Part shown: one piece after another, positions 2,217 through 56,600 of the stretch
How positions within the stretch are numbered: the stretch's first letter is position 1
How the letters are laid out: every line of letters starts with the position of its first letter
IMG/VR virus record: IMGVR_UViG_3300037483_000947
Length of the DNA stretch: 64,000 nt
From: a virus
Direction: 5' to 3' (one strand)
Translations under genes and position numbers: made by a program
Notes under the pieces: model-generated
What the model saw: only the letters and a program-made list of their open reading frames with translations
Databases searched by the model: none
What the model was told of the DNA's origin: nothing

Positions 2217-2789
2217 TTAATAAATCGGCTCTATTGGCAATGGCTTCAACATTTTCTCTGCCTGAGAGCCACTTGACCACTTATCTGTGTGGTTCTTCTT
2301 CTCATTTATCACATCATTTGTAGGCGAATATAAACCTATCTCTAAGTCATTCCCCACAAAGTTTGCGCCGCTGTCCGCCTGATTATGGATCTTTAGCCTC
2401 ATCTGCCTGCCGTAAGCACTGAATGTAAGTGTTTTAGCACCCGCTACGGGCGAGGAAGCGCCTATAACAAGCTGTGTATCTGCATCTACAATCAGGTTAT
2501 CACCCATCTTAATCTGTGGTATAACCTTGATGCTGTCCGTAGCAGCAGCATTGAAATAGTAACTCATGCTCACGGTCCCGCCGTCCCAGCGTGAGTGCTT
2601 TGTTGTCCAGGCAGTGTAATTATCCGCTGAAGAATCAAAATTTGTGAAGATTGTATACAATCCTCCAAATCCGCCTTCAACATCATCCAGTTCGGTCCAG
2701 CTCGCAGTAGTTACCGATAAAGGCACTGTGAAAGCCAGTGACAATACAAGAAACATAGCTAATATTGTCGGTAATATGAATTTTTTCAC
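2217..2789 (-). CDS. secreted hypothetical protein (N-terminal signal peptide)
   Basis: N-terminus MKKFILPTILAMFLVLSLAFTVPLSVTTASW has the n/h/c regions of a Sec signal. Lies inside the head-gene block. Confidence 0.55.
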   Translation of the reverse strand: MKKFILPTILAMFLVLSLAFTVPLSVTTASWTELDDVEGGFGGLYTIFTNFDSSADNYTAWTTKHSRWDGGTVSMSYYFNAAATDSIKVIPQIKMGDNLIVDADTQLVIGASSPVAGAKTLTFSAYGRQMRLKIHNQADSGANFVGNDLEIGLYSPTNDVINEKKNHTDKWSSGSQAEKMLKPLPIEPIY

Positions 2790-2856
2790 GAAATTTCTCC
2801 TTAAATGTTATAAAAAAATTTTACTTCAAGTCACTTCACCCCTGTAATCCCAGGCT

Positions 2857-3507
2857 TTACGCCGGTGGTACACTCTGAGCTTTCTCAATCAGCTCGAACA
2901 AATGAACCGCGTTCACCTCTTTCTTCGCCTTAGCCTTGTATCTGTCGGCAAATCCGTATTTTTCTCCGTATTCTATAAATTTTGCCTTCAAATCCTGTGC
3001 GCTGAGTTCCTGTAAAGAGTCAATCGTAAGCACATCCGTTGCATGAGAAGAAGCATCCTCCGAACCACTTGCAGGTTTTTCCTTCTTATCCGCTGACAGA
3101 CTTAAAATCCTGTCGCAAGCGCCTTCAATGTTTTCCAGAAGCATGGAAACAATATCAGGGTCAACCATTTTGGCGTTTTCCAGCTTCTCTCTTAGCTTCT
3201 GAGGCATATTCAGAGGGTCTGTGGCAGCAGAGGGTCCAACGGAAACCTGCACATGAGCAGGGTCTTTCCTGGTTTCCAGGGCATTATCCGCTTTGTCATA
3301 CTTCAGCATCCCGTTTTTGAAGTGGTCTGTGGATTCAATAAACTTCTTATCTTCCGGTTTGATGTAAAATACGCCGACTGCAACCTTGCCTCCATCTTCT
3401 TCAAGATATGCAGGCTGAGGCCTGAAAATCCTGACCTTACCATTATCATCTAACTGCGTTTCACCTGAGATACCCAGATGTGAAATGATTTTTATTCTTT
3501 CGTCCAT
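2857..3507 (-). CDS. hypothetical protein
   Basis: ORF 2857-3573 trimmed to the internal ATG at 3507 (MDERIKIISHLG). The upstream 22 codons look non-coding. Confidence 0.45.
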   Translation of the reverse strand: MDERIKIISHLGISGETQLDDNGKVRIFRPQPAYLEEDGGKVAVGVFYIKPEDKKFIESTDHFKNGMLKYDKADNALETRKDPAHVQVSVGPSAATDPLNMPQKLREKLENAKMVDPDIVSMLLENIEGACDRILSLSADKKEKPASGSEDASSHATDVLTIDSLQELSAQDLKAKFIEYGEKYGFADRYKAKAKKEVNAVHLFELIEKAQSVPPA

Positions 3508-7015: not shown

Positions 7016-9193
7016 TTATTGTTCTACTGCTTCCTGAACCGGCTTCTTAGCTCCGGCCTTTGCGGAGTTTCCGCCCTGCCCTGCTGATTTAATCTTCTGG
7101 CTCATCATCCACTGCTGTGCATATTGTTGAAATTCTGCCCAGAACTCCGGTCCCAGTGATTCGATAAATTGCAGCTTCTTCATTGCATCACGTTCAGAAG
7201 TGTATTTCTCAACCAGCATATCCTTATTGTCTGCCCAGTATCCGCCCTGATTTTCAAGGAATATCTCGAAGAACGTGGCACTGTCGGGATTACGTGCAAA
7301 TAACTGCGCCGCAAGTACCTTATCCTCATATTTAGTATCATCAATATCAAATGTCAGTGAAACATTAAATCCGAACCGCTGTATTTCACCATCCTGGTCT
7401 TTAAGGCTGTTGATATGGTAAATATCACCAGCTTCTACCTGTTCCGGCGTAAGCATTTCACCATCTGCGCCTCTCCATTTGCGCTCAATTTCAACCATGC
7501 TTCTCTCACTGAACTTCATAGCCGCCTGCTCCGGCGGTAAATTCGGATATGCTTTGCCCAAATATTGGTAAAACCGCGCACTCGGCCAGTGCGCTTCTAT
7601 CGGGATGTATTTCGGATCTTCTTTTTTGCCGTCTGTTATCTCTACCCACTCATCCTCACCAAACTCTTCCGCCAAAATCCTGTAAATATAACCGGATTCA
7701 AGCCCTACACCCAGTTCAATGCTCTGAACAATCGGCTGCAGAAGCGTAGCATTGGAATCTTTAAGCTCTTTTGCCAGCTTCCCGCTCATCTGCTCACTGG
7801 TTTTTGTTGGCAGCTGCCCCTGCAGTATCTCCTTGCGGATGCTATTACGTTTTAAAACTTGGTCAATAATCGTTATAAGCTCCGTTAAACTTGCACTTTC
7901 GTTAGGCCACTGAATAATATGAAGTAAATTGTCAAGTGTTACATTAGGTCCTATAGCATCCAAATCCACCGGCAGAATAGCTCCAATATCAATAAAATCC
8001 TGAACCGTATCTTTTCCCCATTCTTGATATAGGGTTTTGGCTATAAATCCCCTTATTGCCATTCTATGCCGCTCACTGTTTAATTTCACCGTGAGCACCA
8101 CATTTAACAGGTCATTAAGAACCACATTCTTGCCTATGCGGGAATTCCCGAATACCGATAAGTCGCTTTGTTCATCCTCATACGGGATAGTCTGAAATTG
8201 CCAGCCATCATCATCACGCGGGTCCGCATACTTATTCAGCCTGAAATCGCATAATCCCAAACTTGTATTATATATACCTGTAAAACAATAACTGTTCAGA
8301 GCCTGTAGCTGTGTTGGGGTTAAATTTCCCCTCTCATCCTGCTGAATTATACCCAGATTAATCGAATCGAGGTTAAATTGCTTCCACTCCGGCAAATATA
8401 CCGTCACAAACTGGTCATTGATGCTGGTTCGCGCTTCAACCATGCCATTGCTCATAATCGTATCCGCTTCGGTATCAGAAATAACCTTATCCGGGTCATA
8501 GCCCATACTCTGAAACATCAGCCTTGCCTGGTCAAGCGGTATTTTCTTGAAAGGAATTATAAAACGTGAGTTTACAGTTGACTTTTTGTCAGGGTACGGG
8601 TCAGGCAGAACACTGAGCGGATGGAAATAATCAATACTTATATCGCCTATATCATCAAGCCCCTTAATTCTGTAAGGATTGTAATAAGGCCGTGTGTATG
8701 CTTTGTTATATCTGAGCATATAACGAATAACCGGAATCCTTACCAATTCCCACAACCTTTTACGCCTTTCCCACTTTTCAAGGAATTTACCTACTGCCCA
8801 TTCCAGCCGGTCATTGCGGGGATTCGTATCGTGCATCGGCTTTAAAACTTTCTTTGCCTTTGTAAACTCAGCTACATAACCCCTCTCCATTTCTCCTACA
8901 CGGTTATCAGAGAAATATATAATGTTCCCCTTGCGTTTCTGCACCTGAAACTTGCGGAGGTCAAAATTCTGGATGTTCTGCTTAACAAATTCCTCCAATG
9001 CCCCATCTGTAAAACCAACAGGCATTTGATGCCCCTCTACGGATAACGCTATTTTATTGCAAATATCAACATAACCTGTTCGGGCCAGCTCTTCTTTGGA
9101 AAGGTCTATATAACTTTGAACGAAATCGGTGAGATGTTTCTTATCGTCAGTGTTTGAAAGTTTGAGTTTTCTATGGTCTTTGAATTGTTCCAC
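7016..9193 (-). CDS. portal protein (candidate)
   Basis: 725 aa, directly downstream of TerL. Size and position are typical of a portal. Apparent GTG start. Confidence 0.6.
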   Translation of the reverse strand: MEQFKDHRKLKLSNTDDKKHLTDFVQSYIDLSKEELARTGYVDICNKIALSVEGHQMPVGFTDGALEEFVKQNIQNFDLRKFQVQKRKGNIIYFSDNRVGEMERGYVAEFTKAKKVLKPMHDTNPRNDRLEWAVGKFLEKWERRKRLWELVRIPVIRYMLRYNKAYTRPYYNPYRIKGLDDIGDISIDYFHPLSVLPDPYPDKKSTVNSRFIIPFKKIPLDQARLMFQSMGYDPDKVISDTEADTIMSNGMVEARTSINDQFVTVYLPEWKQFNLDSINLGIIQQDERGNLTPTQLQALNSYCFTGIYNTSLGLCDFRLNKYADPRDDDGWQFQTIPYEDEQSDLSVFGNSRIGKNVVLNDLLNVVLTVKLNSERHRMAIRGFIAKTLYQEWGKDTVQDFIDIGAILPVDLDAIGPNVTLDNLLHIIQWPNESASLTELITIIDQVLKRNSIRKEILQGQLPTKTSEQMSGKLAKELKDSNATLLQPIVQSIELGVGLESGYIYRILAEEFGEDEWVEITDGKKEDPKYIPIEAHWPSARFYQYLGKAYPNLPPEQAAMKFSERSMVEIERKWRGADGEMLTPEQVEAGDIYHINSLKDQDGEIQRFGFNVSLTFDIDDTKYEDKVLAAQLFARNPDSATFFEIFLENQGGYWADNKDMLVEKYTSERDAMKKLQFIESLGPEFWAEFQQYAQQWMMSQKIKSAGQGGNSAKAGAKKPVQEAVEQ

Positions 9194-9228
9194 GGTGCAA
9201 AGGTAACTACACCGTGAGGATTAAACTT

Positions 9229-9239
9229 TATTTGGAACC
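9229..9239 (-). promoter_or_regulatory. recurrent intergenic motif GGTTCCAAATA
   Basis: Copy between the TerL stop (9261) and the portal start (9193). Confidence 0.4.
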
Positions 9240-9260
9240 GATGAGAATTAAAATTGGGGT

Positions 9261-11906
9261 TTATAATCCTCTCTGAAATTGCTCATCTATAATTTGTCTA
9301 ATTAATGCCTTATCCTGCTTCGGGTAGGGGATTGTAAAACTTGTTACAAGCTGCTTAGACGCATCTATACAATTATGAACTAAAATCCCATTAGCATAAT
9401 ATTCGTGGTCATCCTCCACTTCCATATTATAAACTTTCTGTTTTCCTGCGTAATTCACCTCTACATTTGTGAGAACACGTTCTCGCATTATATCTTGTTT
9501 TAAATTCTTTGCCACAAATTTCACAGACTTTGGATTTTTTATTTGACCCAGTCTTTGTATAAAACTTATTCCGGCAACTGATAGAACAAAAACTATTCTT
9601 CCCGCCATGTTTATCAAGTCCCGTTTCATATTCTTCACCACAATTTGAACAAAACTTCCTGACTGTTTTTCTTTCACCAAATTTCTGTTTTTTTGCATGT
9701 TCTCGGTGCCAAGCACGTCCCTCCTCTGACCTATGCCACTCCTTTGACATTTCCTGTAACTTTTTAATATGTTCCCGCCTCCATTGTCTGGTATCTTCAG
9801 AAATATTTTCTTTATGATGCTCTTTGTGCCACCATAGGTCCAAACACTCAAGATTCTCAATAGCATTATTAAGTGTATTGTGGTCTTTATGATGGATTTG
9901 ATGGCCGAATGGAATTTCACCATTATAAAATTTCCAAATATCTCTGTGGAGGTATCTTTTGCCTTTTTTGTAATGGGTTGATGAACACCTGTAGTATTTT
10001 CTGTAGGTCCTGACGGGCGAATTAGGGTATCTTCTGTAAACAATTCCCTGAAATTCAACTGCTTCAGGTTTCCCATGCTTATATTCAGCAGGCATTTATA
10101 ATATTCCTTTCTATTTACTACTAAAAGAATATCCCCTCGCCGAAGTTTAGAAATTGGTACAAACTCATTATTCGCCGCTTCGTAAACTCCATGATTTGAG
10201 GTGGAGGTTATTTTGATAATTTCACCACCACTAAAATACATAAGCATTTCATAAGTATCAATAGCTCTATCCGTCAATCCTGCATTTAATACCCTTTTAA
10301 AACCTCGACGGGTTAAAACATATTCGCCCTTTTTCACTTTTTCTATACCTTTTTCACCGTTTAGTGTAAATATCTTTGTGCCAGCAATAAAACAATGGTC
10401 TATCCCGATTTTCTCGTCAAAATCCTCTTCCATTATAAGACTGTGAACCAGCTTTGGCACAGTTTCCCAGAACCAATAGCACTTCGATACACTGATGAAA
10501 AGCGTTGGCTCTCTCAGCCATAGCCCGTTATTATCTTTTTGCCAATTCAGTTCACTCTTCATCTGCCGGTTGCACCATATTCTGTATGTTGCATCTTCCT
10601 TCTTCTGCTTTATAGCCCGCACAAAAGTAATATTTAATCCCTCAACTTCCCTGCCATCATCAAGTTTTGTGGTTGAATTGCAGATTTGACTAAATATATC
10701 CACTACCTTTTTACCGCCGCCATAGGCTTTTGCGGGTTCCGCGAACATATCTACATCACACACTACTGTGAAATTCTTATATCCCCTCGAAAAACAGAAG
10801 TTTTTGAAAGCCTTTGCCCGGTCTAACAGTTCCATCTTGGGGTCATTTATTACAAATTCATCAGTAATGTATTTCCTGCGCTTGTTATCCATTGATCCAT
10901 AATGAAAAACCATCCAGTTCCCGTAATCTATTGACCCCAGCACCTTTATCACTTCCGGGATCTCACGTTTATCCGCATCATGCACTTCCTTGTTAAGCAT
11001 ACCAAAGAACAGTTCATCGCTGATTTTAGGAAATTCACCGCACAATTCCCAGATTGCAGTATTGTCAGGCTTGTAAATCTTTCCTTTCCATTCAAATGTG
11101 TGGTCCTCCTGTGAGTGCTCTTTCACAATTTCACAGTGCTTGCGTATCATATCCTCAACCCATTCAATGCCAACTCCGCCCGGAATAACCTCTCTGCCCT
11201 CTTTGATGTTCGGATGGTCAAAAGCACTGATTGTAATTCTGTTGATTCTGGGGTTATTCTCAGCCTCATCCCACAATTCCTTAAATTCACACAGATTTGT
11301 CCGGGGATTCGTTATTGCCAGTAAGCGTGAGTTCTCACCGCTCATGTGCCCGTTTACAGCCTTCCAGATAGCTTTGTGCACACCGCTTGCCTCGTCTATG
11401 ATGTCCAGTATCATCGGGCCGTGATATCCGCTGAAACGCACAGCCGATTGCTCCTCTTTCCCCACCTGCACAGTTATACCGGTTGCAAACCATTTCTTGC
11501 CATCAAGGATAAGGTCTGTCTGATTCAACTTAGCCTCCGGTGTGCCTGCGGAGTCTATCAAGGGGCGCTTGGAGTTCTTAACCATGTTTGTTATCTCACC
11601 CCAGAGTAAATCCTCTACCTGCTTGTTTGTCGGAGCAGTAGTTAGGACACGCGAGTTTACATTGGGAAATAAAAAAGCAAGTCCTATTGCGGCTGCACAA
11701 TAAGTCTTGCCTACGTTAAAACTCGCTTTTACCAGCGTTATTTTATATTTCCAGACTGATTCAACTATTTCCTTTTGTTTATCCCAGAGATTAACCCCAA
11801 TAGCATTTTCAATAAAATACAGCGGGTCCTGAAGCGTTCTGACAGCTGTTTCTACCTCTTTATCTGATAAAATCTCATTTCCTGATTGCTTTTCCGTTGT
11901 TGGCAT
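9261..11906 (-). CDS. terL: terminase large subunit, intein-containing precursor
   Basis: Walker A SFNVGKT, Walker B MILDIIDEASG, C-terminal nuclease-like region. The frame is continuous through a 341-codon intein at ...GIDH|C...HN|CIDASKQL. Confidence 0.85.
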   Translation of the reverse strand: MPTTEKQSGNEILSDKEVETAVRTLQDPLYFIENAIGVNLWDKQKEIVESVWKYKITLVKASFNVGKTYCAAAIGLAFLFPNVNSRVLTTAPTNKQVEDLLWGEITNMVKNSKRPLIDSAGTPEAKLNQTDLILDGKKWFATGITVQVGKEEQSAVRFSGYHGPMILDIIDEASGVHKAIWKAVNGHMSGENSRLLAITNPRTNLCEFKELWDEAENNPRINRITISAFDHPNIKEGREVIPGGVGIEWVEDMIRKHCEIVKEHSQEDHTFEWKGKIYKPDNTAIWELCGEFPKISDELFFGMLNKEVHDADKREIPEVIKVLGSIDYGNWMVFHYGSMDNKRRKYITDEFVINDPKMELLDRAKAFKNFCFSRGYKNFTVVCDVDMFAEPAKAYGGGKKVVDIFSQICNSTTKLDDGREVEGLNITFVRAIKQKKEDATYRIWCNRQMKSELNWQKDNNGLWLREPTLFISVSKCYWFWETVPKLVHSLIMEEDFDEKIGIDHCFIAGTKIFTLNGEKGIEKVKKGEYVLTRRGFKRVLNAGLTDRAIDTYEMLMYFSGGEIIKITSTSNHGVYEAANNEFVPISKLRRGDILLVVNRKEYYKCLLNISMGNLKQLNFRELFTEDTLIRPSGPTENTTGVHQPITKKAKDTSTEIFGNFIMVKFHSAIKSIIKTTIHLIMLLRILSVWTYGGTKSIIKKIFLKIPDNGGGNILKSYRKCQRSGIGQRRDVLGTENMQKNRNLVKEKQSGSFVQIVVKNMKRDLINMAGRIVFVLSVAGISFIQRLGQIKNPKSVKFVAKNLKQDIMRERVLTNVEVNYAGKQKVYNMEVEDDHEYYANGILVHNCIDASKQLVTSFTIPYPKQDKALIRQIIDEQFQRGL
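9372..10394 (-). mobile_element. class-1 intein in terL
   Basis: Starts CFIAGTKIFTLNG (block A), has TSNH (block B), ends VYNMEVEDDHEYYANGILVHN with +1 Cys (blocks F/G). Boundaries read codon by codon. Confidence 0.85.
9427..10095 (-). CDS. HNH homing endonuclease nested in the intein, out of frame with it
   Basis: Own ATG, with TAA immediately upstream in that frame and AAAGGA nearby. HNH core HQIHHKDHNTLNNAIENLECLDLWWHKEHH plus FCSNCG..FCSISC and CEICG..CSHKC ribbons. Frame offset from terL: 1811 nt, i.e. 2 mod 3. Confidence 0.85.
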   Translation of the reverse strand: MPAEYKHGKPEAVEFQGIVYRRYPNSPVRTYRKYYRCSSTHYKKGKRYLHRDIWKFYNGEIPFGHQIHHKDHNTLNNAIENLECLDLWWHKEHHKENISEDTRQWRREHIKKLQEMSKEWHRSEEGRAWHREHAKKQKFGERKTVRKFCSNCGEEYETGLDKHGGKNSFCSISCRNKFYTKTGSNKKSKVCEICGKEFKTRYNARTCSHKCRGELRRKTESL

Positions 11907-12432
11907 GTTTTACTAATTCAAGAATAGTGGTAAACTGCCCCTCGTGCTTATGCTCATGCTTCTCTACCAGCATCCCCTTGATTCGGGCAGCTAAGTCAAG
12001 AGCGGATAATTTGGAGTGTAGTTTAAATTTAACATTCGTCCCCTCTTTGCCTTTAACCATCTGCACCGATTCAACTGCCATCGCCTGATCAAGTGTCAAA
12101 TCCTTAAATTCTTTCAGTGCAACACCATCCGGCCCAACATTACAGTAATCCCTGATATCAGAGCGGATGAGGCTCCTAACCTGCCTGACTATCTCATCTT
12201 CCTCTATTTCCAGCTTCTTATCTACCCGTGCCAGCAGTTCCCTGATTTTCTCCTGAACCTTAGCTTTACTTAGCAACCGCGATGCTGTGACCTCAGCCGA
12301 TTTTGGACTGTAACCGGCCTCAATAGCAGCTTTCTTACCATTGAATTTCTGCTTAATCCACTCTTTGCAAAACAATAGCTGTTTTGGTGACAGTTTACTG
12401 CCTATAATCTTATTTCCGTTCTCAAATCCCAT
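11875..12432 (-). CDS. terS: terminase small subunit
   Basis: LSPKQLLFCKEWI..GKKAAIEAGYSPKSAEVTASRLL matches my recollection of the Terminase_2 helix-turn-helix signature. Overlaps the terL start. Confidence 0.75.
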   Translation of the reverse strand: MGFENGNKIIGSKLSPKQLLFCKEWIKQKFNGKKAAIEAGYSPKSAEVTASRLLSKAKVQEKIRELLARVDKKLEIEEDEIVRQVRSLIRSDIRDYCNVGPDGVALKEFKDLTLDQAMAVESVQMVKGKEGTNVKFKLHSKLSALDLAARIKGMLVEKHEHKHEGQFTTILELVKHANNGKAIRK

Positions 12433-12679: not shown

Positions 12680-12705
12680 TTTTGTTTTTACTCAATTCCC
12701 ATAAG

Positions 12706-12778
12706 CGGGGTACAAGGGAGTCGAACCCTTAACCTTCGGAGTGACAGTCCAATGTGCTACCATCTGCACCTCTACCCC
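12706..12778 (-). tRNA. tRNA-Asp (anticodon GTC)
   Basis: Hand-folded cloverleaf. Acceptor GGGGTAG/GTACCCC (7-66 mismatch), D arm GTGC-AGATGGTA-GCAC. Anticodon arm TTGGA-CTGTCAC-TCCGA, variable loop AGGTT, T arm AAGGG-TTCGACT-CCCTT. Discriminator G; no encoded CCA. Confidence 0.8.
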
Positions 12779-13511: not shown

Positions 13512-13756
13512 TAGTTCACCATCTTCGGCCTCAGGTGCCGATTCATTAACTTTTTGTATTTCTCCACCAGCGGTTCATATACTAAAGGTTCTTCACCCTT
13601 CTCAAAATCTATGTGGGGATATTTAACTTTCAATAATTTCAGTAAATCCTTTTCCTCTTCTTCCCACTTCTTTTTAAGTGCACCTTCAAGCATTTCGTTT
13701 TGAGTCCCCAGCATACCCTTCCATATCTTCACGTTCTTCCACTGCAAAAATCTCAT
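13511..13756 (-). CDS. hypothetical protein (start uncertain)
   Basis: 81-aa maximal ORF that overlaps the GroES 3' end. Internal ATGs at 13714 and 13693 are alternative starts. Confidence 0.4.
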   Translation of the reverse strand: MRFLQWKNVKIWKGMLGTQNEMLEGALKKKWEEEEKDLLKLLKVKYPHIDFEKGEEPLVYEPLVEKYKKLMNRHLRPKMVN

Positions 13757-14027
13757 GTTCCGGCATAATCAGTAAATTCTCATCATCAACCCTTATCTCG
13801 GTTCCGGCATACTTGCCATATATCACAATATCACCGACCTTAACACTAAGCGGAGTTAAGTCTCCGTGGTCTGTCAGAGTCCCTGTGCCAACAGCAATCA
13901 CTTCACCCTTCTCTGCCTTTGCCATTTGTTCCTGAGCATCTACAGGCAGTATTATCCCGCCCTTTGTAACTTCTTCAGGTTTAATAGGTCTTATTAATAT
14001 CCTGTTATATAATGGTTTAACACTCAT
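13686..14027 (-). CDS. groES: co-chaperonin GroES homologue
   Basis: From the ATG at 14027: MSVKPLYNRILIRPIKPEEVTKGGIILP..KGEVIAVGTG..VKVGDIVIYGKYAGTEI..LLIMPEHEIFAV. This is the canonical Cpn10 pattern. Confidence 0.8.
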   Translation of the reverse strand: MSVKPLYNRILIRPIKPEEVTKGGIILPVDAQEQMAKAEKGEVIAVGTGTLTDHGDLTPLSVKVGDIVIYGKYAGTEIRVDDENLLIMPEHEIFAVEEREDMEGYAGDSKRNA

Positions 14028-44679: not shown

Positions 44680-47600
44680 TTACTTAATCTTCTTCACCTT
44701 ATTCCAGGCATCCAGTGCCGCTTGTCTCTGAATTTTACGCTCTTCTTTGGTTATTTTCTTATCCCTGAATTGGCGCTCTATAACCGATTGCCGGTTGCTC
44801 AGTAATTCCAGAACCCGCATTTTATCAATTTTAAGGTCTTTTTCTTCCTGGTCTGATACCTTATACTGATAGAATTTCCCATCAATCTGCTTCAACCCGG
44901 ATTCCTCGAATACTTTGTTTATTTCGTATACTTTCTCCCGGAGTCCTATATATTTATCAAATTTTGAATATAAATCCAATGCTTCCTTTTGATGTTTCTC
45001 AGGAACCCCCCGCTTCTCACTCATTGTCTTTAGTAAATCCCTGTTTTCTTTAATTATACCATTATCATCTTCCTTTATACCCTCCTCAATGTCACGCTTA
45101 ATACTCTTGAATAGCTTACTGAAATCAAACTTTTTAATCACATTCTGTTTAACCTCCTCTATCCCAATCTGCTCAGGCACAAACCGCTCCTGAACCAGTA
45201 CATCTAAATCAATCTTTAAACTGTTTATTTCCTCCGCCAAACGCTCTTTTTCAGGATTCCCTTCTTTCAGTTCATTCTGTTTCCGCTGTAACTCCCTGAT
45301 ATACTTATCCAGCAGCATTCCCTCGAAACTTGTAGGAGTCTTTTCTTTCTCGTAGTCCTCAACCTCTTTTTTGAGTTTTCCAATTTCCTCATCAATTTCA
45401 GCCGATTTTTCTAACCGCTTCTCCTTTGTTAAACTGTCATCCCTCAGCGTTGCAGCTTTCTTTTGGTATAAATCACTTAATTTCCCGTTCCGCTTCTTGA
45501 TCTGATCATCTATGTTCTTTATCTGACTAACCGGATTAACCTTTAACCCAAAAATAGCGCTGGTTACAGCAGGCTCAATATCGAATACCCTCCCGTAATA
45601 ATCAGGCCGTTTTGTAATAGCGCTTCTCAATTTATCATATACATACCCGCCCCGGGTCATTCCCGGTATTTCAGGATACCAGGAGGGCATCCACATCTTA
45701 TAAATGTAGTCCATTGCTTTTAAATACTTCTCCCCGGGCTTATCCGCATCATTCCAGATGGTATGTCTGGTATAACGGTTGTAATTGGTTGCTATCTCGG
45801 CAGAGGTAGTGAAAACAGGATTCATCATTATATTGCCCAGCGTTTCAACTAAAAACGCGCCTGTAGGTGATTCCCCTGTTGTAGCAAGTGAATATCCCGA
45901 TATTGCGAGCTGGTAAATATCATTGTAAGGCATTATAAAGGTTAAATCCAGTAGCTGTATCTGTCCATCCCTGTCACGCCATGGTATCAGCATCCATTGC
46001 CCCAGCTTCATCCTGTCCGGTAAATCACGCTTTATATCCTCCCATTCATCATCTGTCATTCCCAGCGCCGCCAAAGCATACTGTGTAATAGCATAAAACA
46101 TCACAGGATACTTCCAGAAGCCTATAGGACGCGTTATAGAAGCCTCTATCATGCGCGGTATCGTTTTCCATGTCCATGTCACAAACGGCATACCGAAGAT
46201 GCTCTCACGGAAGCGCAGAAGCCATCTGGGAATATCATTGTAATCATACATCACCTTATTAGCCATTTTTATAGCATCTGAATCACTCTGCCCCTTCTCC
46301 TTTGAATGGAGAAATAATATCGTCTTAAACAGCACTTCATTACCCTGATACAGCCATCTTGCACCCTTGCCGACTCGCGTATCCACCAGCGTTGCTAATC
46401 CCAGCATTTTCAGAAACTTTCCGGTTCTGCTTAGATTTTTGAAGCCATCCCACCCGCCGGTCTCTCTATTGGCATATTCCTCGAAAATATCCAGAAACTT
46501 CTCTAATTCACCGGCTACATACGTCGAACCCCTTAAAAAATCCAGCTGTGCTGCATACTTGCCCTTACCCCGCATTTCCCTTATTGCCTCCGGTAAAAAC
46601 CGCATCTGGTCAAATATCGTTGTTCCATACATATCACACATTATAACCGCTGTGTAAAAGTTTCTGAACGCAGTAGGCGGATTCATCGGCACCTTCACCT
46701 GTTTCCACATCTGAGTTATCTGTTTCAGGAATTTCTCACTGTAATCCTGGCTACTCATTTCTGCAATCTCATCAAGATGTTTCCATACCTCCGGCTCTAC
46801 CCACATGCCTTTTAGCTTACCCAGCTTCTTATTATTCTTATCCACCGCTGTCCACCCCTCCACAGCGCTCTCAGAAGCCCATGCAGGGTTCTCTGCCACC
46901 GCCTCAAAGAACCTGCCTATTGAAATATCCTTGCCTTCAAGCAGAATTGATTTTGCCACCGGATATGCAGCCGTCAAAATCTCGCCCATTCTTACCCGCA
47001 CCCGAACCGGTATATCAGTCCTGTACATAGCAGATGTTAAATCCAGTCTTGTAGGCTTTATATATCCGTATTTTCTCAGCGTTCTCTCCTGCTCCTTGGT
47101 CAAATATACCCGCTTGAAATACCCCTCCTGCCCCTTTTTAAATGAATTTTTAACCTTCCTGTCCCTGATATCAATCTCATCCACCAGTTTCTTAACCTTT
47201 TGCTCAAACTTCGTTCTCGGCCTGAACTTTGGGTTTGCCCTGATTTCATCTACCAGAGGGTCAATTTCCTCTTCATTTTTGCCTTCTGCCTTTTTACTTT
47301 TGCCTATCAATCCCTGTAGTTCCGCCTCAAACTGCGCCTTTTCCGTTAATAGTTCATGGATTCTCTTTCTGGGAAGTTTGGTATTGTATGTTTCAACCGG
47401 CAGGACTTCGTACATCTCACCCAGTTTTTTCAGTTCTATTGTGAGCTTCTTTACCCGCTCAGCCCTTTGATTCAGGTCTTTCAGGTCTATACGAATAGAT
47501 GATTTCAGCCCGTTCTGCTCGTTAGGCTCGATGGTCAAATAACTACCCTGATTAACTCCGCCCCTTATTAACTGCTCCAATTTCCGCTGCTCAACAAATA

Positions 47601-50600
47601 AATACTTCTCTTTTGCCGCTATGTTACGGTAATACAGTGAATCACCTATTTCTTTAGCGAGCTGTTTATATCTTTGCACCCCAGCGTTCATCTCACTCCA
47701 TAATTCCTTGAAAGCCTCCTTATCGGGAATTGTGCCGAACTGGTCAGTCAGTTTCCGTATCAGTGCTATCTTATCAATGGATTTCTCGATTTTCCGCCGC
47801 ACGGGACCGCCTACAAACTTCTCGAAGAAATTATCCATCCCGCTTAACCCTATTCCCGCAGCCTTCAGAAGTTCATTAACCGTGCCTTCTCCTTTTTCAC
47901 TTTTCACTTCTGCGGTCTTTGCGCCCTTGCGTGAAAACACCTCTTCTGTTCTTTTCTCAAATTCTACAGCCTTTTCCTTTTCCTCTTTCTCCGCATCAGC
48001 CAGTTTTTTCACTGAAGCATTGTATAACTTCTCAGCCTGCTCATCACTCAGTACAAACGGTTTTTTGGTTGAATTACTGAATAATCCGTTAACAATAGTC
48101 TTAAACTCGGTTTTTGGAGTTGATTCAGGTCCTCCGGCTCTGTCTTTTCTGCCCTCGGTCTCAATCCTGCCTTCTCTGCTTAATACCGGATTATCCCTTA
48201 TAACCTTAGCTCCTATTTTCACCAGTTTATCAATGTTCTTATCAAACATCTTATCCGAAATAGTAAGGTTCTTCCGCACATTGAACCCCTCCGGCGGCGG
48301 AGGCACTCCATCCTTCTGAAACAGTATATTCGGATTCCCCGCGTCAAACGTGCCCCTGTTCCCCGTAGCAGATTTAATTTGGGTGGGATGAAATGCTATA
48401 TAACTATCCTCAGCATTATTTTTTATAAACTCCTGATATTGTTTTTCGGCAATATTCCTCTCTTTTGAGGGCAAGTTCATATTCATCCGCTTTTCATTAA
48501 GAACATCGCTACCGGAAACCTCACCAGTATTTTTATAAACCATGCCATCAAACCCTTTACTTTCAATAAGTTCTCTTAAATTTTTAGTCCATTGCCCTGC
48601 ATTTTGGGAACGTGCATATTTTAATTCAGTTTCTGTGAATAATCCCGTTTCTTTTAATCCCCAAGCTACATTATCTCCATCAAACCAACCAACATCTTCT
48701 ATTCTTAATGGTTTATTTATCTTTAAATATACCGGAAATATTCTTTGGTTAGTTTTACCTTCAACTCTGTTGTTCATATAAGCATATCTATCATTTGCTT
48801 GCCCCATAGTGCCAAAATGAATGCCAATATCATTCATTCGCCTTTTAAATCTATTAAAATCTACCGTAGCGGAAGTATAATGATACACCACCAGCGGTTT
48901 CCCTTCCGCATCCACCACTTTACTTACCTCTGTGCTCTCTGTGGCATCCTTCTTCTCCCAGTCCCCAAACCACTTCTTAAACTCCGGTGTATATATCTGC
49001 CTGCTTCTCTGCTCCTCTGTGGTTAGTTTAGCTTTCTGAAACATCGCCTGACCCTTATACAGCACATCCGCCTTCATCTCCGGCGTTATTGTAAGTGAGT
49101 GGATAGGCTTATATTCATCTGTATTGATATCCGGATGATTCTCTTTCATCCATTTTGTGAAAGTACCCTGAAAATTAGAATCTCTGTAATCGTCTTGATA
49201 CGTTTGATGATATTTATTAAACATATCATCGGACATCTCCTTTGTTTTTACCTCTCCATCTTCAACCTTTCCTCCCCATTTTTTCACATATTTATTCACA
49301 AAGTTCGGAAGCATTTCATCATAAAATACTTGCATCCCTTCACCGCCAATCGCCAGATTCTCACCTTCAAATACACCGTCAATCTCATCTTTTGCTATAT
49401 CTTCCCTGATTTGTTTCGCTATCCGTTTACCAACAACATCTTCTAGGTCAACCGTTTTACCTGCTATATGGGTAGTCCCTTCAAGTGGTATTATTTCATC
49501 GAAACTCTTAACCCCCTTCTTCTGACCCTGCACATTAACCTTATCGTCAGCATTTTTAAACCAAATAAGTTTATCAATATTCTGCCTCAATGCTTCATTA
49601 TAGCGGTCAATCTGGTCTTTCCCTAATGTCCATCCCACAGCATCATACCCTTCCTCCGCCGCTTTACGGATGAGGTTCTTCAGTACAAACTCATGCCACG
49701 TCTTTTTCATCGGCGCATTAGGAACACGTTCAGCCCCTATTTTACTTCTTACCCATAATCTAAATTCTGCACGAGTGTGATTTTCAACAGGCCATAAATA
49801 TTCAGTGCCATCAACAAATGCTTGGTAAAACTTGTCTCCTGTTTTTTCGACAATATCTATTGTAAATTTATCTTCTGCAGGTAATCCGTATCCGGCTTTC
49901 CGCCCCGTTTGGTGCAACTGGCTTTGCACCTCCTCAATAAATAACATTTTTTTACCATCAGTTAAAATTCTGTCATTCCCTCTGCCATGTGCAATTATTC
50001 CCTTTTCATGGTAGTGAGGCTCTTCATACTCAATTTCCGCCACCTTAAACAACCACTCCCTGTAATTCTCACCCCCCGGCAACTGCCATTGTGAGAATTT
50101 GGTTTCTTGATTTGGAGTAGTCTTTAACTCATCAATTTGGTCACGTAACGAATCTCTTATATCCCTTAATTCTTCCTCCTTTTCAAAATCTTTATCAGAC
50201 CTTTTATTTTTAGGAGAATTTACCCAATGATTCACATCGCTAGCCGCTTTTTCCCACTGTTTTTCTAGTCCAGCAAGATTATTTTCCCCCAGCACCTTCT
50301 CTTCCACTACCAGCTTATTATTCGCAATAAACTCCATCAGCTCATTCTTTGCGACCTTTGCGTCTTTGCGTGAACCCATCCACTCTTCCAGTCCCATCCA
50401 CTTTATCTCATCCTCTTTCACGCCGTTATTACGCAGTGTTTTCAGCACTTGCTCCGGCGATGAGTTATTACTTACCTTATCACCAGCAACCCGCTCCAAC
50501 TGACTGTAAAACGGCTCCGCAAATTGGCCCCTTGAAAAGGGGACACCCTGAGCGTAGTCGAAGGGTCTCAGATTTAGGCTTCTTCCCGCATTTATCGCAT

Positions 50601-53600
50601 TCATCATTAACTTTTCATCAGCAGTTATCCCGGTTCCTTCAACTATGTCCCGCGCCGCCATTTTAGTGAACTCACCCAGCGTCATCCTCCGCACAGGCTT
50701 CGCAGGGGTCCCAAATATACCGTTAAACCATTCCTGAATATAATTCCACAGCTCTCTCAGCCAACTTTGTTTCTTTGCATATAACTTATCCTCTGTCTCA
50801 ATCATCCCGCTTATGATATCAGCGCCGTCATAACCTATCAAATGAGCCAATCCCTCATTCAGTGCTTTTTCGCTGTAATCACCGTATAATGGTTTTCCAA
50901 ACTCCTGTTCAGGGTATTTAATCAAAATTTGCTCCATCATAGCTTCATCTTCGCTCATCAGTTTTAACCCCGCTTTGTAAAAACCAACGTGCTCTGATTT
51001 AATCCACCCCAGCCAGCCGTGCCCGAACTCATGCACAGGCGTATCTTCTGTTGCCTTATCCGCATTCAAGTGAGCAATCTTTGTATCCATATCAAAGAAA
51101 CCTCTGGGTGAATCATCCTCGGTAATTGATTTATACCCCTTTTTATTCAGCACCTTCACAATTTCAGCATTTTCATTTACCTGCCATTTTACACCCTTGT
51201 CCTTCATATTTCTGTTAATTCGCTTTGAAACAGCATGTAAATAATCAGCGCCGACACGCTTGTAGTTTATTCCCCTGTCGGTTTGAGCAAACAACTTCAT
51301 CTGGTCATCACCAAACTCCGGTTCAGCCGGTTTAACCCCTGCCAATTCCTGCTGCACATTATAAATTTCACGCCTAACCTCACTTAACCGCCTTGACACA
51401 TTATCATACTCACTCATTTCATCCATCTTCCATTCAGCCGTCTCAAGCCTCTTCTGGAGGCGGATTTCCTCCTCCTGCAATGCTTTCAGATAAACATTCC
51501 TGTTTGTGGTAAACTCTTCTTTTTGCTGAAGAATATTAGGATTTGTAGGTGAGAAAATGCCTTTGTTTCCCGTAGCAGATTTGATTTGTGTCGGCTCAAA
51601 TGTGATATAAGATTTATTTGAACCTGTAAGCCCTTTAATTCGTTCAAGTTGCACAATTCCATCGAAGCCAGCGTTTTTAATATTTGTTACTAAAAACATA
51701 CCTGAACGATTGAGATAAAACCATGGTTCATCAGGCGAATCAGAAAGTAAAGCCTCTTCCTGAGCTTCGTTTAATTTTATATTTTTACTCTTTAAATAAT
51801 TAATAAATTTTTTTGCTGATATTTTCTTGATACCCAAATCAGTTATATCTAAAGGATTTTTGATGTTTAAATAAACAGGAAGAAGTTGTGGTTTTTGCCC
51901 CCATTCAGGTAATCCGGCAAAAAGTGTTGCATAATCAGCAGAACTAAAGTAATTCAATCCTTTTTTAAATATATCATTATAAAAATCTCCTGTCCCATGA
52001 TACACCACCAGCGGTTTCCCTTCCGCATCCACTACCTTACTTGCGTTTTCAGGGTCATTCTGCCAATCACCAAACCAATCCTTAAAATTCTTTGTGTGAA
52101 TCTGCTTCCGGCTTTTTTCAATATCCTTCTGCATCATAATATTGCCTTCGGGTCCCAATCCCTCAACATCCGTAGCAATACCGCCTGTTTCAATATCCTC
52201 GCCTTTCTGAATAGCATACAGCGTTCTCAGCTTCCGGTTCAGTATATCCTTTCTCTTCGTATCAACTATCGAATCACTGAAATATATCAAATGCACTTCA
52301 CCCGGTGACTTAGTGTTCCTCCTCGAAAACCGACCCTTTAACTGGTCAAATACATCACCGGCATAGTCAGGTGAAGCCACATATACACTTCTGGGAGCAT
52401 CACCAACCACATCATCCAGATTAATCCCAATACCCCCTGTTTTAGTGGTCATTACCAAAACTTTTATATCACCCGCCTGAAAATCATCAATTCCTTCCAT
52501 CGTTCTCTTTTCCTTGCTCCCGTAAGCCCTGCCGAATTTTATACCCGCCTCGGTAAGTTTCCTCTCAATTATCGGGATAAATGCTTCAACATTACCGCCT
52601 ATCGAACTCAATACACTCTCACTGTAGAAACTGCCGACTATCACAACCTGTTTCCCCGCTTCCAAATCCTTCACCGTTTGCTGGAAAACATACTCCGCTT
52701 TCAATGGCTCGGTTAAATGCCACAGCTCATCCTTCCGCTTTGAACCGTAAGCCATCATAATACCCTTACCCTCTTCACGCGAAATCCTGCCGTATTTTAC
52801 CTGCTTCTTTATCCAATCAATTTTCTGCTGGTAAAACTCATCAATCATTGTTTGTTTGGTCAGTGTATCAGCATCCAGTCCAAGATTCTTTTCCTTGATC
52901 TCACCATAAAACGGATACTCACGCCTTATCATAGCGCCGTTCTTTATGGCCTCATTTCTCAGCTTCAGCACATTGTCAACAACCATATCCGGAGTTATAC
53001 CCGGTTTCATAGCTGACACATACCGCGTTCTGGCTCCAAAAAAATCTTTTTGTTCAACTATATTGAAACCCAGTTCATTAGTTATTTCATGCAGGGGTCT
53101 GTCGGTTATATCAGCAAGGTAGTAAGCTGCCTGTGTAACCTGATCCATCGGAGTAGCAGTAGCATACAGGTATCTCTCAGTTTTAACTTTTCTCGCTGCA
53201 TCACTCTTACCGGAGTCAATATTTTTCAGGTTATGCGATTCATCAAATATTGCAAGAGCATACTGTCCTGTGCCTATTTTTTTATCCCGGAGTTCGGTAT
53301 AACTTCCTACCTCGAAATCGGATAAAGCAATATTAGTGCGCCTTGCCTCCGGCACAAAACTCTCTTTTATAACTCTTGTGGATTCTGTTACGATCAGTAT
53401 TTTCCCGCCGGTCTGCTTTTTCACCTGGTCAGCTATAACAAGCTCTTCACGGGTTTTACCTACTCCCGTGCCGTCGGCTAATAGAAATGCTTTTTTGAGA
53501 TATGTGAGAAATCTTTGAAGTGCTAAATTGATTCCGTAGCGCTGATGCTCGTCAACATCATATTTACCCTTTACAACATGTTCCTTCGTAATTTCGGGTA

Positions 53601-56600
53601 GATTTTCCGTGTTTGCATAACGGAGTGGAGGTCGCCCTCTTCCGCCCTCTCCTCTATCTGCTGGAGAAACGGCTGGTCTGCCAGAAACTCGTTCTCCTTC
53701 AGAGGCGGGAAGCCCCCCTTCAGTTTGTCCAGTTCTTCCTTCGTAGGTGGAGAGAATGTATCCTTCACGGAACTTTTCGGGGTCGAATTTTTCAATGAGT
53801 TTTTCATCGTCTAAACTGTTTAACACCGGCAGACTTACATCTGTTCCGGCTTTGAAGTTTTTATATGAGTGTTTTAAATACGGCAGAAGCTGAGGCAATC
53901 CGTCGTCAATAAGCCTCTCTGCTACCTGCTGTATTCTGAAATTACCTAGCTTAATATAATTAAATGTCAGATGATCCGCAAGTATCTGTAAGTTTTCAGG
54001 CTCAATACCCTCGGTTTCATCCTTCTGGAAGAGGATATTCGGGTTACTCGCATCAAATGTTCCCACGTTCCCCGTAGCAGATTTAATCTGCGTCGGCTCA
54101 AGGGCTATATAAATATTTCCAACGTTTTCGGTATTGTATAATATAAGTCCATCATTATTATTTTTTATGGCTTCTTCAATATCGGCAGCTATATCAGGAA
54201 CAGCATAATACTCCTTATCATAATCTTTAACGAAAGGTCTTTTTATCTTTAAATAAACAGGCATAATATTAGGAGAACCTACACTTTTAGAATATAAAGA
54301 AGCTATTTCTGGGTCATCCGTAAAGAAGAATTGTAATTTATTTTTATCAAATTCTGTAAAATTTTTCCCTGTCCCATGATACACCACCAGCGGTTTCCCG
54401 TTCTCATCCACAACTTTACTGTCCCCAAACCACTTCTTAAATGGAGAGGATTCAGTTAGTTCCTTTTGGAACATCACGTTCCCTTCAGTGCCTTTATCAC
54501 CAATTCCACTTTTCCTGATCGCCTCCTGCTTCAACCTGTCAATTTCATCCAGCACCTTCTGCTTCTCATCATCTGTTTCCGCAAACTGAACTTTTTTCGG
54601 CTCCACAGTTGGACCGCCGAATAATCCTATTTCACTCTCACCTGCCTGCTTATATTTGCCCTCCTGCTTCTGCAGTTCATCACGTTCCTGCTCAATAGCA
54701 ATAATCTCATTCCTCACAGGCTCCAGAACCCTGTTTATATCCTCATTAGTGTAGCCTTTCTCTTTTTGCTTACCTACAAGTTCATTTCTCCGTGATTTTA
54801 ATTCCGCTTCCTTTTCTTTCAGCTCCGCAGCCAATTGATTCAATCTGCGCTTGTATTCACGCTCTGCGGTTGTGAGTTCTGCTGTCTGGGGAAGATTCAG
54901 TGGTTTGGTCCTGTCATACTCAGGATTCTCAACAATGTCAGTAATTTTATCAATAAACCCTGATTTCAGTTTAAACTTCTGGTAGTTCTTCTCATCCATC
55001 AGATAATCAAACATCTCATTTTCATGTGAATCCGTGATTTTCCTGCTTATTCTCTGCCTCACAGCGCCTACCCAGCTCGCAACTGTGCCCAGCCGTTCCT
55101 GTGTATCCTTATCCTCTGCCTTTGCCATTGCTACCAATGACTGAAATGTTTTGCCCTTTGGATTCAGGTATGAAAGTTCGATTATGTAGGTAGCATTGTT
55201 GCCGTATAAATCCTTCGCCTTCTGCCTGATTTCAGTAGTGCTTTCAATACCTTCTCTGATTTTCCTGAAATACAAAGCATTATCGGTTACTTTCTGCACC
55301 GCCCCTTGGTTTGATTCCTGTGCTATCTTTTTTGCCTGTTCAAATGTAACACCGTCTGTTTCCCTGATGAACTGTGTAGGAATTGTCTTAAAATCATCAT
55401 TAGCCTTGGCAAGTGACTCAAACGCTGCTAACCGGCTGTGTCCCGCCAACAGTTCAAATGTGCCATTTTTACGCTCATAAACCAGAATAGGAGGCATGGA
55501 TGAACGCACAAACTTACCTTCCTTCTCTTCATTCAATATCCGGTTATAAGTCTGCTCGCTGTATTCCTCACCCTGCCTGCCCTGATAATTCTTCAAGTCC
55601 TTTGTTATCGCACTCAACTCGACCTCACCAAATGCTTCAGTCTTTTTCACTTTTTCACCTTGTGAGACACTTTTCTTCTCTTTTACCGTAGTCTCTTTAA
55701 TTTCCTCACTTTTTTCCGTCTCACCTTTCAGTTCAGGATAATCTTTCAGTATATTCTCTGGCACAGTTTTGCCCTCTTTTTGTGCCTTCTTAATCAGTAC
55801 TATTTGTTCACTTCCAGCAAACTCGCTATCCCACGGAATTTTACTCTCTTTATCAGCCTTCTCAAACTCTGCTTTTGTCATTGAAACAGCGTAATCCATC
55901 CGGGTCTTTTCAGGTTCTATCTCTTTTTGCTTTTTTACTTTTGCTTTTTTACTTTCTTCCCTTACTTCCCCAATATCTTCCTTACCATGTTGAATTTGTG
56001 TTTGTTGCTCAGTTTCGGCAGGTTTGGGTTTTTCTTCCTCTTCCAGTTGTAGATTCTTGCCGCTTTTCTCTTCGCCAGGTTCAACGGTAGTCCCTCCTCG
56101 TGGAATTTGTTCCTCATTCCCTCGTATTGTTTCGGCATTTTGCACCTCCTTTTTTAATTCGCTATCTGCGATTTTTCTAAAATCAGTTGCGTCTTTACTG
56201 TTTAAATCATCAACTTCTTTTACCCAGTCTTTCCCTTTATTAACTTGAATTTCATTGTAAATCTCATTCATGCCGTCAACCTTATCAACCTTCCATCCTT
56301 CACCGGTATCAATCAAACTTATTACAGTTGGGTTATCCGTTCCTTCATTTTTGGCTTCAAAATCCTTGAATTGTGCCTCTGGAGTTTTACCTTTATAAAA
56401 ACCTTTGCGGGACCGGGGAAGAATCTCATCTCTGAATTGTTCTAAAGTAGGTTTAACAATAATCTGCTTATTCCCGATTTCCTGCCCGCCTTCTTTATTC
56501 CGCCTCCATACAGCTTTTATGCCCCTTCTTTCCTGTTTAGGAGTAATTTCCGCACCCTCTGTGGTAGGTTTTTCCTCCGCGCCTTCGCGTTCTTTGCGTG

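Follow-up and report, generated by a model that had tools for sequence, protein, structure and literature searches.

The large terminase subunit gene (terL) of the virus record IMGVR_UViG_3300037483_000947 (IMG/VR; 64,000 nucleotides (nt), referred to here over its full length as the window) contains an intein whose centre is overprinted, on the same strand and in another reading frame, by a gene for an HNH endonuclease. We consider it likely that this region is a composite selfish element, in which a mobile class-1 intein and an overprinted HNH homing endonuclease sit together in the conserved C-terminal nuclease motif of TerL. Support for this reading comes from the anatomy of the locus, from selection on both frames, from the joint presence and absence of intein and HNH gene, from transfer of the pair between unrelated terL lineages and from polymorphism in a related phage population. 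The terL open reading frame (ORF) and its intein, with structured parts delimited by pLDDT values (predicted local distance difference test) of AlphaFold2 models, are laid out as follows:

9261..11906, minus strand: terL precursor ORF, 881 codons plus stop, made up of N-extein, intein and C-extein
10395..11906, minus strand: N-extein of terL, 504 codons, ending ...EKIGIDH
9372..10394, minus strand: class-1 intein, 341 codons (terL residues 505-845), with Cys1, T65-S-N-H68, H340-N341 and Cys at +1
9264..9371, minus strand: C-extein of terL, 36 codons, starting CIDASKQLV, inside the conserved DH-x-x-DA nuclease motif
10077..10394, minus strand: N-terminal splicing lobe of the intein, residues 1-106, modelled as a confident beta fold (pLDDT block means 80-89)
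9495..10076, minus strand: intein-frame linker, residues 107-300, translated through and kept stop-free only (pLDDT 28-45, no domain match)
9372..9494, minus strand: C-terminal splicing lobe of the intein, residues 301-341, including VYNMEVEDDHEYYANGILVHN (pLDDT 76-88, PT-HINT at 304-341)

The precursor is one uninterrupted ORF on the minus strand, downstream of the small terminase gene. An earlier note, made from the letters of the window, had described terL as interrupted by 341 codons at ...KIGIDH|C and had called the insert a canonical class-1 intein with a CFIAGTKI start and a TSNH motif; the interruption was found where the note had put it, from 10394 to 9372 within the 881-codon ORF, and the insert carries the residues of such an intein, ending in ILVHN before the Cys at +1. 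The nucleophile Cys1 is invariant in an alignment of related inteins (A4), as are T65 and H68 of the block B TxxH motif, and nearly all relatives with a similarly nested HNH gene end in HN or SN followed by C, S or T, the window having His-Asn followed by Cys. With residues 505-845 removed, the extein aligns over its full length with intein-less terL proteins of 533-556 amino acids (aa) at 42-56% identity (BLAST). Two of these intein-less relatives (P0002 and P0003) read IGIDH-P-IDA where the window reads IGIDH|intein|CIDA, which defines a precise in-frame insertion point; in DNA form, such an intein-less site would read ...ATCGGGATAGACCAT-CCN-ATAGATGCG.... When GenBank phages were searched at the DNA level with terL, the sole match was 77 nt long and lay at the C-terminal junction of the intein, and this search thus provided no close relative.

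Hint-type Pfam profiles reach the intein frame through its two ends only. Hint_2 (residues 1-34) and PT-HINT (304-341) match with scores under their cut-offs, and Intein_splicing scores 36.1 bits against the isolated intein (residues 61-341, across the centre) and 35.4 bits against the whole protein, with a cut-off of 35.8. The central part, as the earlier note had held, is featureless: the Pfam search gave no domain match there, and pLDDT falls below 50 for residues 107-300, residues 1-106 and 301-341 having block means of 76-89. A group I intron with a homing endonuclease ORF was considered as another identity for the insert and rejected: a search of 9000-10800 against Rfam gave no match at E<=1, the frame of the host gene is open, and the junctions are canonical for an intein.

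The gene lying across the centre of this intein, and the parts of its product, are:

9427..10095, minus strand: HNH endonuclease ORF, 222 aa plus TAA, at a 2-nt offset (= -1) from the terL frame
9814..9957, minus strand: HNH catalytic core, residues 47-94, from the HNH_3 match and invariant columns
9574..9651, minus strand: zinc ribbon 1 of the HNH protein, conserved C149/C152/C170/C174
9463..9525, minus strand: zinc ribbon 2 of the HNH protein, conserved C191/C194/C207/C211

Its ATG lies immediately 3' of a TAA in its own frame, it has its own stop, and the terL frame runs without a stop across it, all as first described. Profile searches on these frames, which the earlier note had proposed as a check, gave HNH_3 for the HNH frame and the Hint-type matches at the two ends for the intein frame. 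The match to HNH_3 (PF13392) covers residues 47-85 (E=3.9e-14, 52.4 bits, cut-off 24.8), and no Endonuclease_7 match was found in Pfam at E<=1. In the alignment of homologs, H68, H69, N81 and H90 are invariant, D71, N76 and N77 are conserved at >=90%, and both four-Cys ribbons are conserved, which bears out the HNH core plus two zinc ribbons proposed for this frame. AlphaFold2 models the protein with a mean pLDDT of 92.8. A fold search of the model against PDB gave nothing significant (top match I-HmuI, 1u3e, E=0.8, template modelling score ~0.2), and PDB sequences gave no match in a profile search either. The gene is present once in the window, has no gene call in the public assembly and is absent from a database of 5.8 billion proteins; the best match to it is 42-44% identical.

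The same arrangement recurs widely. Homologs found in GenBank phages by tblastn with the HNH protein sit beneath 'terminase large subunit' annotations, and the register is the same in six phage records. Clostridium phage phiCDHM19, Acinetobacter phage Highwayman, Tetrasphaera phage TJE1, the human-gut phage scaffold MT838676 and Rhodobacteraceae phage LS06-2018-MD07 each have a 2-nt-offset HNH gene inside a canonical intein near the C-terminus of terL, with 0 stops in the terL frame. Scanning IMG/VR yielded more than 530 relatives. Among the best 80 of these, the ranking being by similarity to a query alignment with nested copies at its head, 70 are nested in an ORF of 700-1100 codons, all with that ORF in the +1 register relative to the HNH gene, and none of the 80 is in the +2 register or fused in frame; because of the ranking, the proportion is biased towards nested copies, which leaves the absolute number unaffected. 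Likewise, 12 of the 13 best loci in a collection of genomes and metagenome-assembled genomes (MAGs) are nested in the same register. The labels of the MAGs name several bacterial phyla, with one record given as a Thermoplasmatales archaeon. This last locus (L098; CP070724.1, MAG chromosome of 2.3 Mb, 545192-552809) has a nested intein and HNH gene in a 732-codon ORF with the C-terminal junction GVLVSN|SIDAIRY, and may represent either a provirus of an archaeon or an artefact of binning. The register is kept across HNH divergence down to ~35% identity, across GC contents of 0.31-0.66 and across viruses of several phyla, and no in-frame fusion occurs among 112 database HNH homologs.

The two frames are under different kinds of selection. 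Across ten related gut-phage loci, substitutions in the overlap number 521, 427 and 1219 at positions 1, 2 and 3 of the HNH codons, and those in the N-extein number 736, 513 and 5222 at the three positions of the terL codons; periodicity in the overlap therefore follows the HNH frame, as that in the N-extein follows the terL frame. A second signature lies in what the HNH protein leaves out. Met followed by Ile, Met, Thr, Asn or Lys is avoided because such a dipeptide forces a TGA in the terL frame: not one occurs in 69 distinct nested copies (13,634 codons), for which the 12 occurrences in 2,822 codons of non-nested homologs would predict ~58. NTA codons are also ~3.4-fold depleted in the nested copies and never stand before A or G. 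The comparative data on the recurring register, on stops in homologs outside inteins and on forbidden dipeptides make a far stronger case than the single-sequence argument on which the earlier note had based its claim that selection keeps the terL frame open.

That note had also called the arrangement dual coding, which holds for the ends of the overlap. The overlap spans intein codons 100-323, and together with the model boundaries this leaves ~7 and 23 codons structured in both frames, the longer stretch being:

9427..9494, minus strand: last ~23 HNH codons (helix after zinc ribbon 2) superposed on the first beta strands of the C-terminal intein lobe, from the AlphaFold2 models

The remaining ~194 terL-frame codons of the overlap are constrained only against stops. 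The substitution pattern, the forbidden dipeptides and the structure models show that the HNH frame is selected as a protein and that the central terL frame is only kept stop-free. Central intein-frame peptides do show a patchy likeness among relatives (for example IKTTIHLIMLLRILS); this overlies the HNH catalytic core, and we take it for a side effect of the constraint that acts on the HNH frame.

Intein and HNH gene also share their distribution. The closest extein relatives have neither the intein nor an HNH homolog within 6 kb, and the same interval around terL is free of HNH homologs in the syntenic intein-less relatives L094 and L095. (In L094, terL is followed by a 213-aa gene that was weighed as a candidate free-standing HNH gene and rejected, having no Pfam match and no tblastn similarity.) Among 39 nested loci with well-defined junctions (~15 of 61 loci were left out of this pairwise analysis, the junction pattern, a regular expression, having failed or misfired), extein similarity is undetectable in 398 of 741 pairs, whose HNH proteins still align at ~39% and whose splicing lobes at ~36%. 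Insertion points cluster within one conserved nuclease motif, in which they take three adjacent positions: DH|x-x-DA, DHx|x-DA and DA|x-RY. At the other extreme of divergence, a search with the spliced extein of the gut-phage group recovered 80 contigs whose terL lacks the intein and has an extein that is 99-100% identical. The DNA flanks of these alleles are identical to those of occupied ones except at the +1 codon, which is GGA (Gly) in place of TGT (Cys). Presence and absence at such extein identity is the pattern expected of an element that is homing now or was homing recently.

The HNH protein might instead be a nuclease associated with the terminase, as in some cos phages, that is merely housed in the intein. 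Free-standing homologs directly adjoin terS, terL or portal genes, a position that free-standing homing endonucleases typically take beside their target gene too. Zinc-ribbon HNH nicking enzymes encoded beside terminase genes offer a precedent (Xu and Gupta, PMC3592412), but these are shorter (121-264 aa) and the Pfam family of the window's protein is HNH_3. L094 and L095 have no homolog near terL, and the HNH protein is therefore not required by this terminase lineage; the module moreover occurs in mutually unalignable terL families, and its two parts are gained and lost together between nearly identical exteins. An accessory role is thus possible but unlikely.

It is likewise conceivable, at a rather low probability, that the window's own copy is an inactive relic, with a dead HNH gene and an immobile mini-intein carrying a long junk linker. 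The window element has no close relative in which selection could be measured (42-44% for the best HNH match), its nearest intein-less terL is just 56% identical, and decaying copies exist elsewhere: L056 (2655-3233) and L102 (58-597) have a stop in the HNH frame, with the frame of the overlapping long ORF still open. In addition, searching a large protein database with the intein frame, which gave 8 matches only and served as a shallow alignment, turned up a terL (P0234) whose related mini-intein is devoid of an HNH gene, the kind of homolog that the earlier note had suggested looking for. Endonuclease decay after fixation, as in L056 and L102, and an empty mini-intein such as that of P0234 are expected stages of a homing cycle. 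Against a relic, the window copy retains all invariant catalytic and zinc-binding residues in a full-length ORF with its own start and stop, and its product is modelled with high confidence.

For an active element, we propose the following mechanism. Ribosomes on the terL mRNA would stay in the terL frame across the HNH DNA, producing a ~194-residue unstructured linker between the Hint lobes, and the intein would then splice out to leave a 540-aa TerL. As TerL is essential, a stop in the terL frame would be lethal, which keeps the frame open and has reshaped the codon and amino-acid choices of the HNH gene. The HNH protein would be made separately, by internal initiation on the same mRNA. Acting as a homing endonuclease, it would cut intein-less terL at or near DH|x-IDA, and repair would copy intein and HNH gene together. 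A candidate start signal in the window is:

10105..10109, minus strand: AAGGA, possible ribosome-binding site 9 nt upstream of the HNH ATG (weak evidence)

This motif is only compatible with independent initiation, because most genes in the window lack such motifs. Among 25 long minus-strand ORFs of the window, five starts have a Shine-Dalgarno (SD) core of at least 5 nt, compared with 9% at random positions, and the leaders are mostly A-rich; these SD-poor starts suggest a host with SD-independent initiation. SD cores of at least 4 nt stand at the HNH starts of 36 of 61 nested loci, a figure that has no convincing background and is not used as evidence. Separately, TATGGTGATATA recurs ~12 nt upstream of the HNH ATG (L012, L014, L034, L043, L054, L077 and others); it encodes Tyr-Gly-Asp-Ile in the intein frame at the end of the N-terminal lobe, and its GGTGA is complementary to the extended anti-Shine-Dalgarno sequence.

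The HNH frame lies exactly -1 to terL in all nested copies and in an unrelated element of Gordonia phage Keitabear, which raises the question of whether it is reached by a -1 ribosomal frameshift, yielding a fusion of the terL N-terminal part, the N-terminal intein part (IntN) and HNH and no free protein. We judge this very improbable. In the window a stop in the HNH frame immediately precedes the ATG, and at most loci the first ATG is 0-5 codons from such a stop; no canonical slippery heptamer was seen by eye at the window's HNH start (no systematic search was made); and relatives that are free-standing or lie in fractured terL genes express the same protein from a start of their own.

Two compensating frameshift errors that mask an ordinary intein with an in-frame HNH domain are effectively refuted as an explanation. 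The sequence is metagenome-derived, and the frames are broken here in an older record, Clostridium phage phi CD119; however, independent projects supplied further cases of the register (6 phage records in GenBank, 70 loci in IMG/VR and 12 in genomes or MAGs), the JGI and Logan assemblies both hold the identical 881-aa terL protein, the HNH ATG directly follows a stop in its own frame, the 112 database homologs include no in-frame fusion, and the absence of forced-stop dipeptides from 13,634 codons makes sense only with a terL frame that is really translated. In the phi CD119 record, which dates from 2006 (L009; NC_007917.1 1-4971), terL is annotated as two pieces and a 'hypothetical protein' and the HNH frame is truncated; its relative phiCDHM19 has one intact 799-codon terL with a nested HNH gene, and the broken frames of phi CD119 are probably due to sequence errors or a deletion in the older record.

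How readily such a frame opens by chance was estimated in several ways. When the HNH gene's own codons were permuted synonymously, a check suggested by the earlier note, the terL frame was open in 0.9% of permutations (P=0.009, mean 2.5 stops), and re-encoding the HNH protein with the codon usage of the window gave P=0.0011 (mean 5.2 stops). Both nulls are conservative, because the HNH gene has already lost its risky codons and dipeptides. When free-standing homologs were re-encoded in the codon usage of the window, 0 of 20,000 cases came out stop-free (means 7.4-11.3 stops), and in the window's other 19 long ORFs none of 801 stretches of 223 codons is open in the terL register (mean 16.3 stops, minimum 5). 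Natural controls agree: free-standing and fractured homologs carry 4-14 stops in the corresponding frame (among free-standing genes, 12 in Exiguobacterium phage vB_EauM-23, 14 in Acinetobacter phage BP10, 4 in Pseudomonas phage PAE1 and 12 in Escherichia phage Ec1-ASingh), whereas all 69 distinct nested copies are open. The earlier note's rough estimate of 1e-5 is thus too small relative to the most conservative null and about right relative to the natural controls. An AT-rich gene that merely happens to be open in a second frame has in its favour the ~0.9% of that conservative null and is refuted by the natural controls. In the free-standing homologs, the +1 frame usually has fewer stops than the +2 frame, and the terL register may accordingly be easier to open.

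Several points weigh against the interpretation of the region as a mobile composite of intein and homing endonuclease. Splicing, separate translation of the HNH protein and its cleavage specificity are steps that we infer. The start signal of the HNH gene is weak, being an AAGGA at -9 in a phage whose genes mostly do without such motifs, and promoter-like sites were not enriched over shuffles in a promoter and terminator scan. Intein_splicing scores lie right at the Pfam cut-off, and the fold search with the HNH model returned no significant match, I-HmuI at E=0.8 being the top one. The presence/absence polymorphism comes from the gut-phage lineage, the nearest intein-less relative of the window's own lineage being only 56% identical, and the codon-position test rests on the same related lineage rather than on that of the window. 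The proportion of 70 in 80 is biased, as noted above, and the position of free-standing homologs beside terminase genes fits a packaging-accessory role as well as a homing one.

Relatives of the element also occur in other arrangements. Of the ten non-nested loci among the 80 from IMG/VR, five have a free-standing HNH gene right after an intein-less terL that ends ...DNHSIDACRY.... L048, L061, L087 and Vibrio phage 1.238.A (L008; Schitoviridae, NC_055735.1 3303-8941) have a fractured terL, consisting of an N-terminal piece that ends in IntN, then the HNH gene, then a separate ORF with the C-terminal intein part (IntC) and the C-extein. In the Vibrio phage these parts lie at 1-2639, 2501-3235 and 3174-3491 of the locus, both terL halves keep to the +1 register relative to the HNH gene, 14 stops separate them, and the HNH protein has a third zinc ribbon. 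Its terL looks like a nested ancestor that was later split, and in this manner the nested architecture sometimes decays to a fractured gene with a split intein.

The earlier note had seen in the window a possible snapshot of how composite inteins arise. No in-frame derivative was found in the 80 IMG/VR loci or the 112 database proteins, and the idea is unsupported because the same register is conserved and widespread; the architecture looks stable, long-lived and successful rather than transitional. A broader reading, which we hold tentatively and with somewhat more doubt than belief, is that overprinting serves a very large family of terminase inteins, spread across phyla, as a stable and adaptive design: it would uncouple the endonuclease from an essential late protein, the no-stop rule would have remodelled the endonuclease's sequence, and the lineage would repeatedly spawn free-standing endonuclease genes and terminases fractured by split inteins. 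If true, this family would provide a natural series joining three arrangements that have so far been described separately.

The general type has already been described, and the novelty implied by the earlier note was too high. Actinobacteriophage inteins, including some in terL, were reported in 2025 to contain a homing endonuclease of endonuclease VII-like type, encoded 'in reading frame 3 relative to the intein', an arrangement stated to be previously unreported (Gosselin, Arsenault and Gogarten, bioRxiv 2025); a full-text literature search found no further paper on out-of-frame endonucleases in terminase inteins. The window shares with those elements a same-strand endonuclease ORF in another frame, placed between the splicing blocks, and a host frame that is open and unstructured there. 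One of the published phages, Gordonia phage Keitabear (L093; MN329677.1 514-2901), was checked and has its endonuclease in the same -1 register relative to terL. It differs in its nuclease, which has an Endo VII-type core (IPR004211 in the described examples) where the window has HNH_3 with two zinc ribbons; in its intein (CMTGDT...SHN|T versus CFIAGT...VHN|C); and in its site, the ATPase motif VLVM|TRWHEDDL as opposed to the nuclease motif DH|C-IDA. Hosts and scale differ as well: Gosselin et al. described a small number of actinobacteriophages, and the window family has hosts outside Actinobacteria, is much larger and occurs in dozens of metagenomic viruses. What is new for this family is the imprint of stop avoidance, together with relatives that are free-standing or fractured and a polymorphism between alleles whose exteins are 99-100% identical.

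Three further systems resemble the window in part. Fractured genes with split inteins carry GIY-YIG or Vsr-like endonuclease genes (Dassa et al., 2009, PMC2677866), which, as in the window, have their own start and stop at the endonuclease-insertion point of an intein in a gene of DNA metabolism, one of them a terminase. The window's terL, by contrast, is unbroken, with a contiguous intein in one 881-codon ORF, and its nuclease is HNH; Dassa et al. predicted that HNH enzymes could fracture genes too, and the relatives in Vibrio phage 1.238.A, L048, L061 and L087 have exactly the fractured arrangement they described. The ShiLan insertion of a phage DNA methylase contains an out-of-frame 'hidden' HNH gene (Arsenault et al., 2025, PMC11855218), similarly overprinted on a stop-free host ORF and similarly sporadic and homing-like in distribution; it has no splicing domains and is thought to be retained in the protein, whereas the window's insert is flanked by canonical intein lobes. 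Canonical bifunctional inteins with in-frame HNH or LAGLIDADG domains share the insertion point in the Hint fold and the presumed homing logic, but their endonuclease is part of the intein polypeptide, while that of the window is a separate ORF readable only at offset 2. At the protein level, modular HNH enzymes of the I-HmuI type (PDB 1u3e) share an HNH_3-type core and extended DNA-binding modules, although the match was not significant, and the C-terminal double zinc ribbon has no counterpart in them.

The phenomenon is striking and the comparative series informative; we rate the overall interest as moderate, as the general type has been published. Nested out-of-frame homing endonuclease genes escape standard gene callers even though they recur in dozens of viral contigs. 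The family is an unusually clean natural experiment on the upkeep of overlapping genes, with one frame under ordinary protein selection and the other barred from stops, and the cost of the no-stop rule can be measured in forbidden dipeptides and depleted codons. With free-standing, nested and split-intein copies of one endonuclease family at one terminase motif, models of intein, endonuclease and split-intein evolution become testable. As for practical uses, the family could be mined for natural split inteins, for mini-intein scaffolds in which linkers of ~200 residues are tolerated, and for new HNH nucleases that target a conserved terminase sequence.

The surroundings of terL in the window include one further terminase gene directly upstream:

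11875..12432, minus strand: small terminase subunit gene (phrog_51, E=5e-31; Terminase_2)

The window's sole tRNA gene, a tRNA-Asp (GTC) at 12705-12778 on the minus strand, lies just upstream of the terminase genes. Far from them, a single 4,533-codon ORF (44680-58281, minus strand) takes up about one-fifth of the window and matches only PHROGs of unknown function (phrog_21376 and phrog_30335). Slightly upstream of the small terminase gene is a gene for a Cpn10/GroES-like co-chaperonin (~13686-14027, minus strand), and its position is kept in the intein-less relatives L094 (2967-3230) and L095 (4676-5044).

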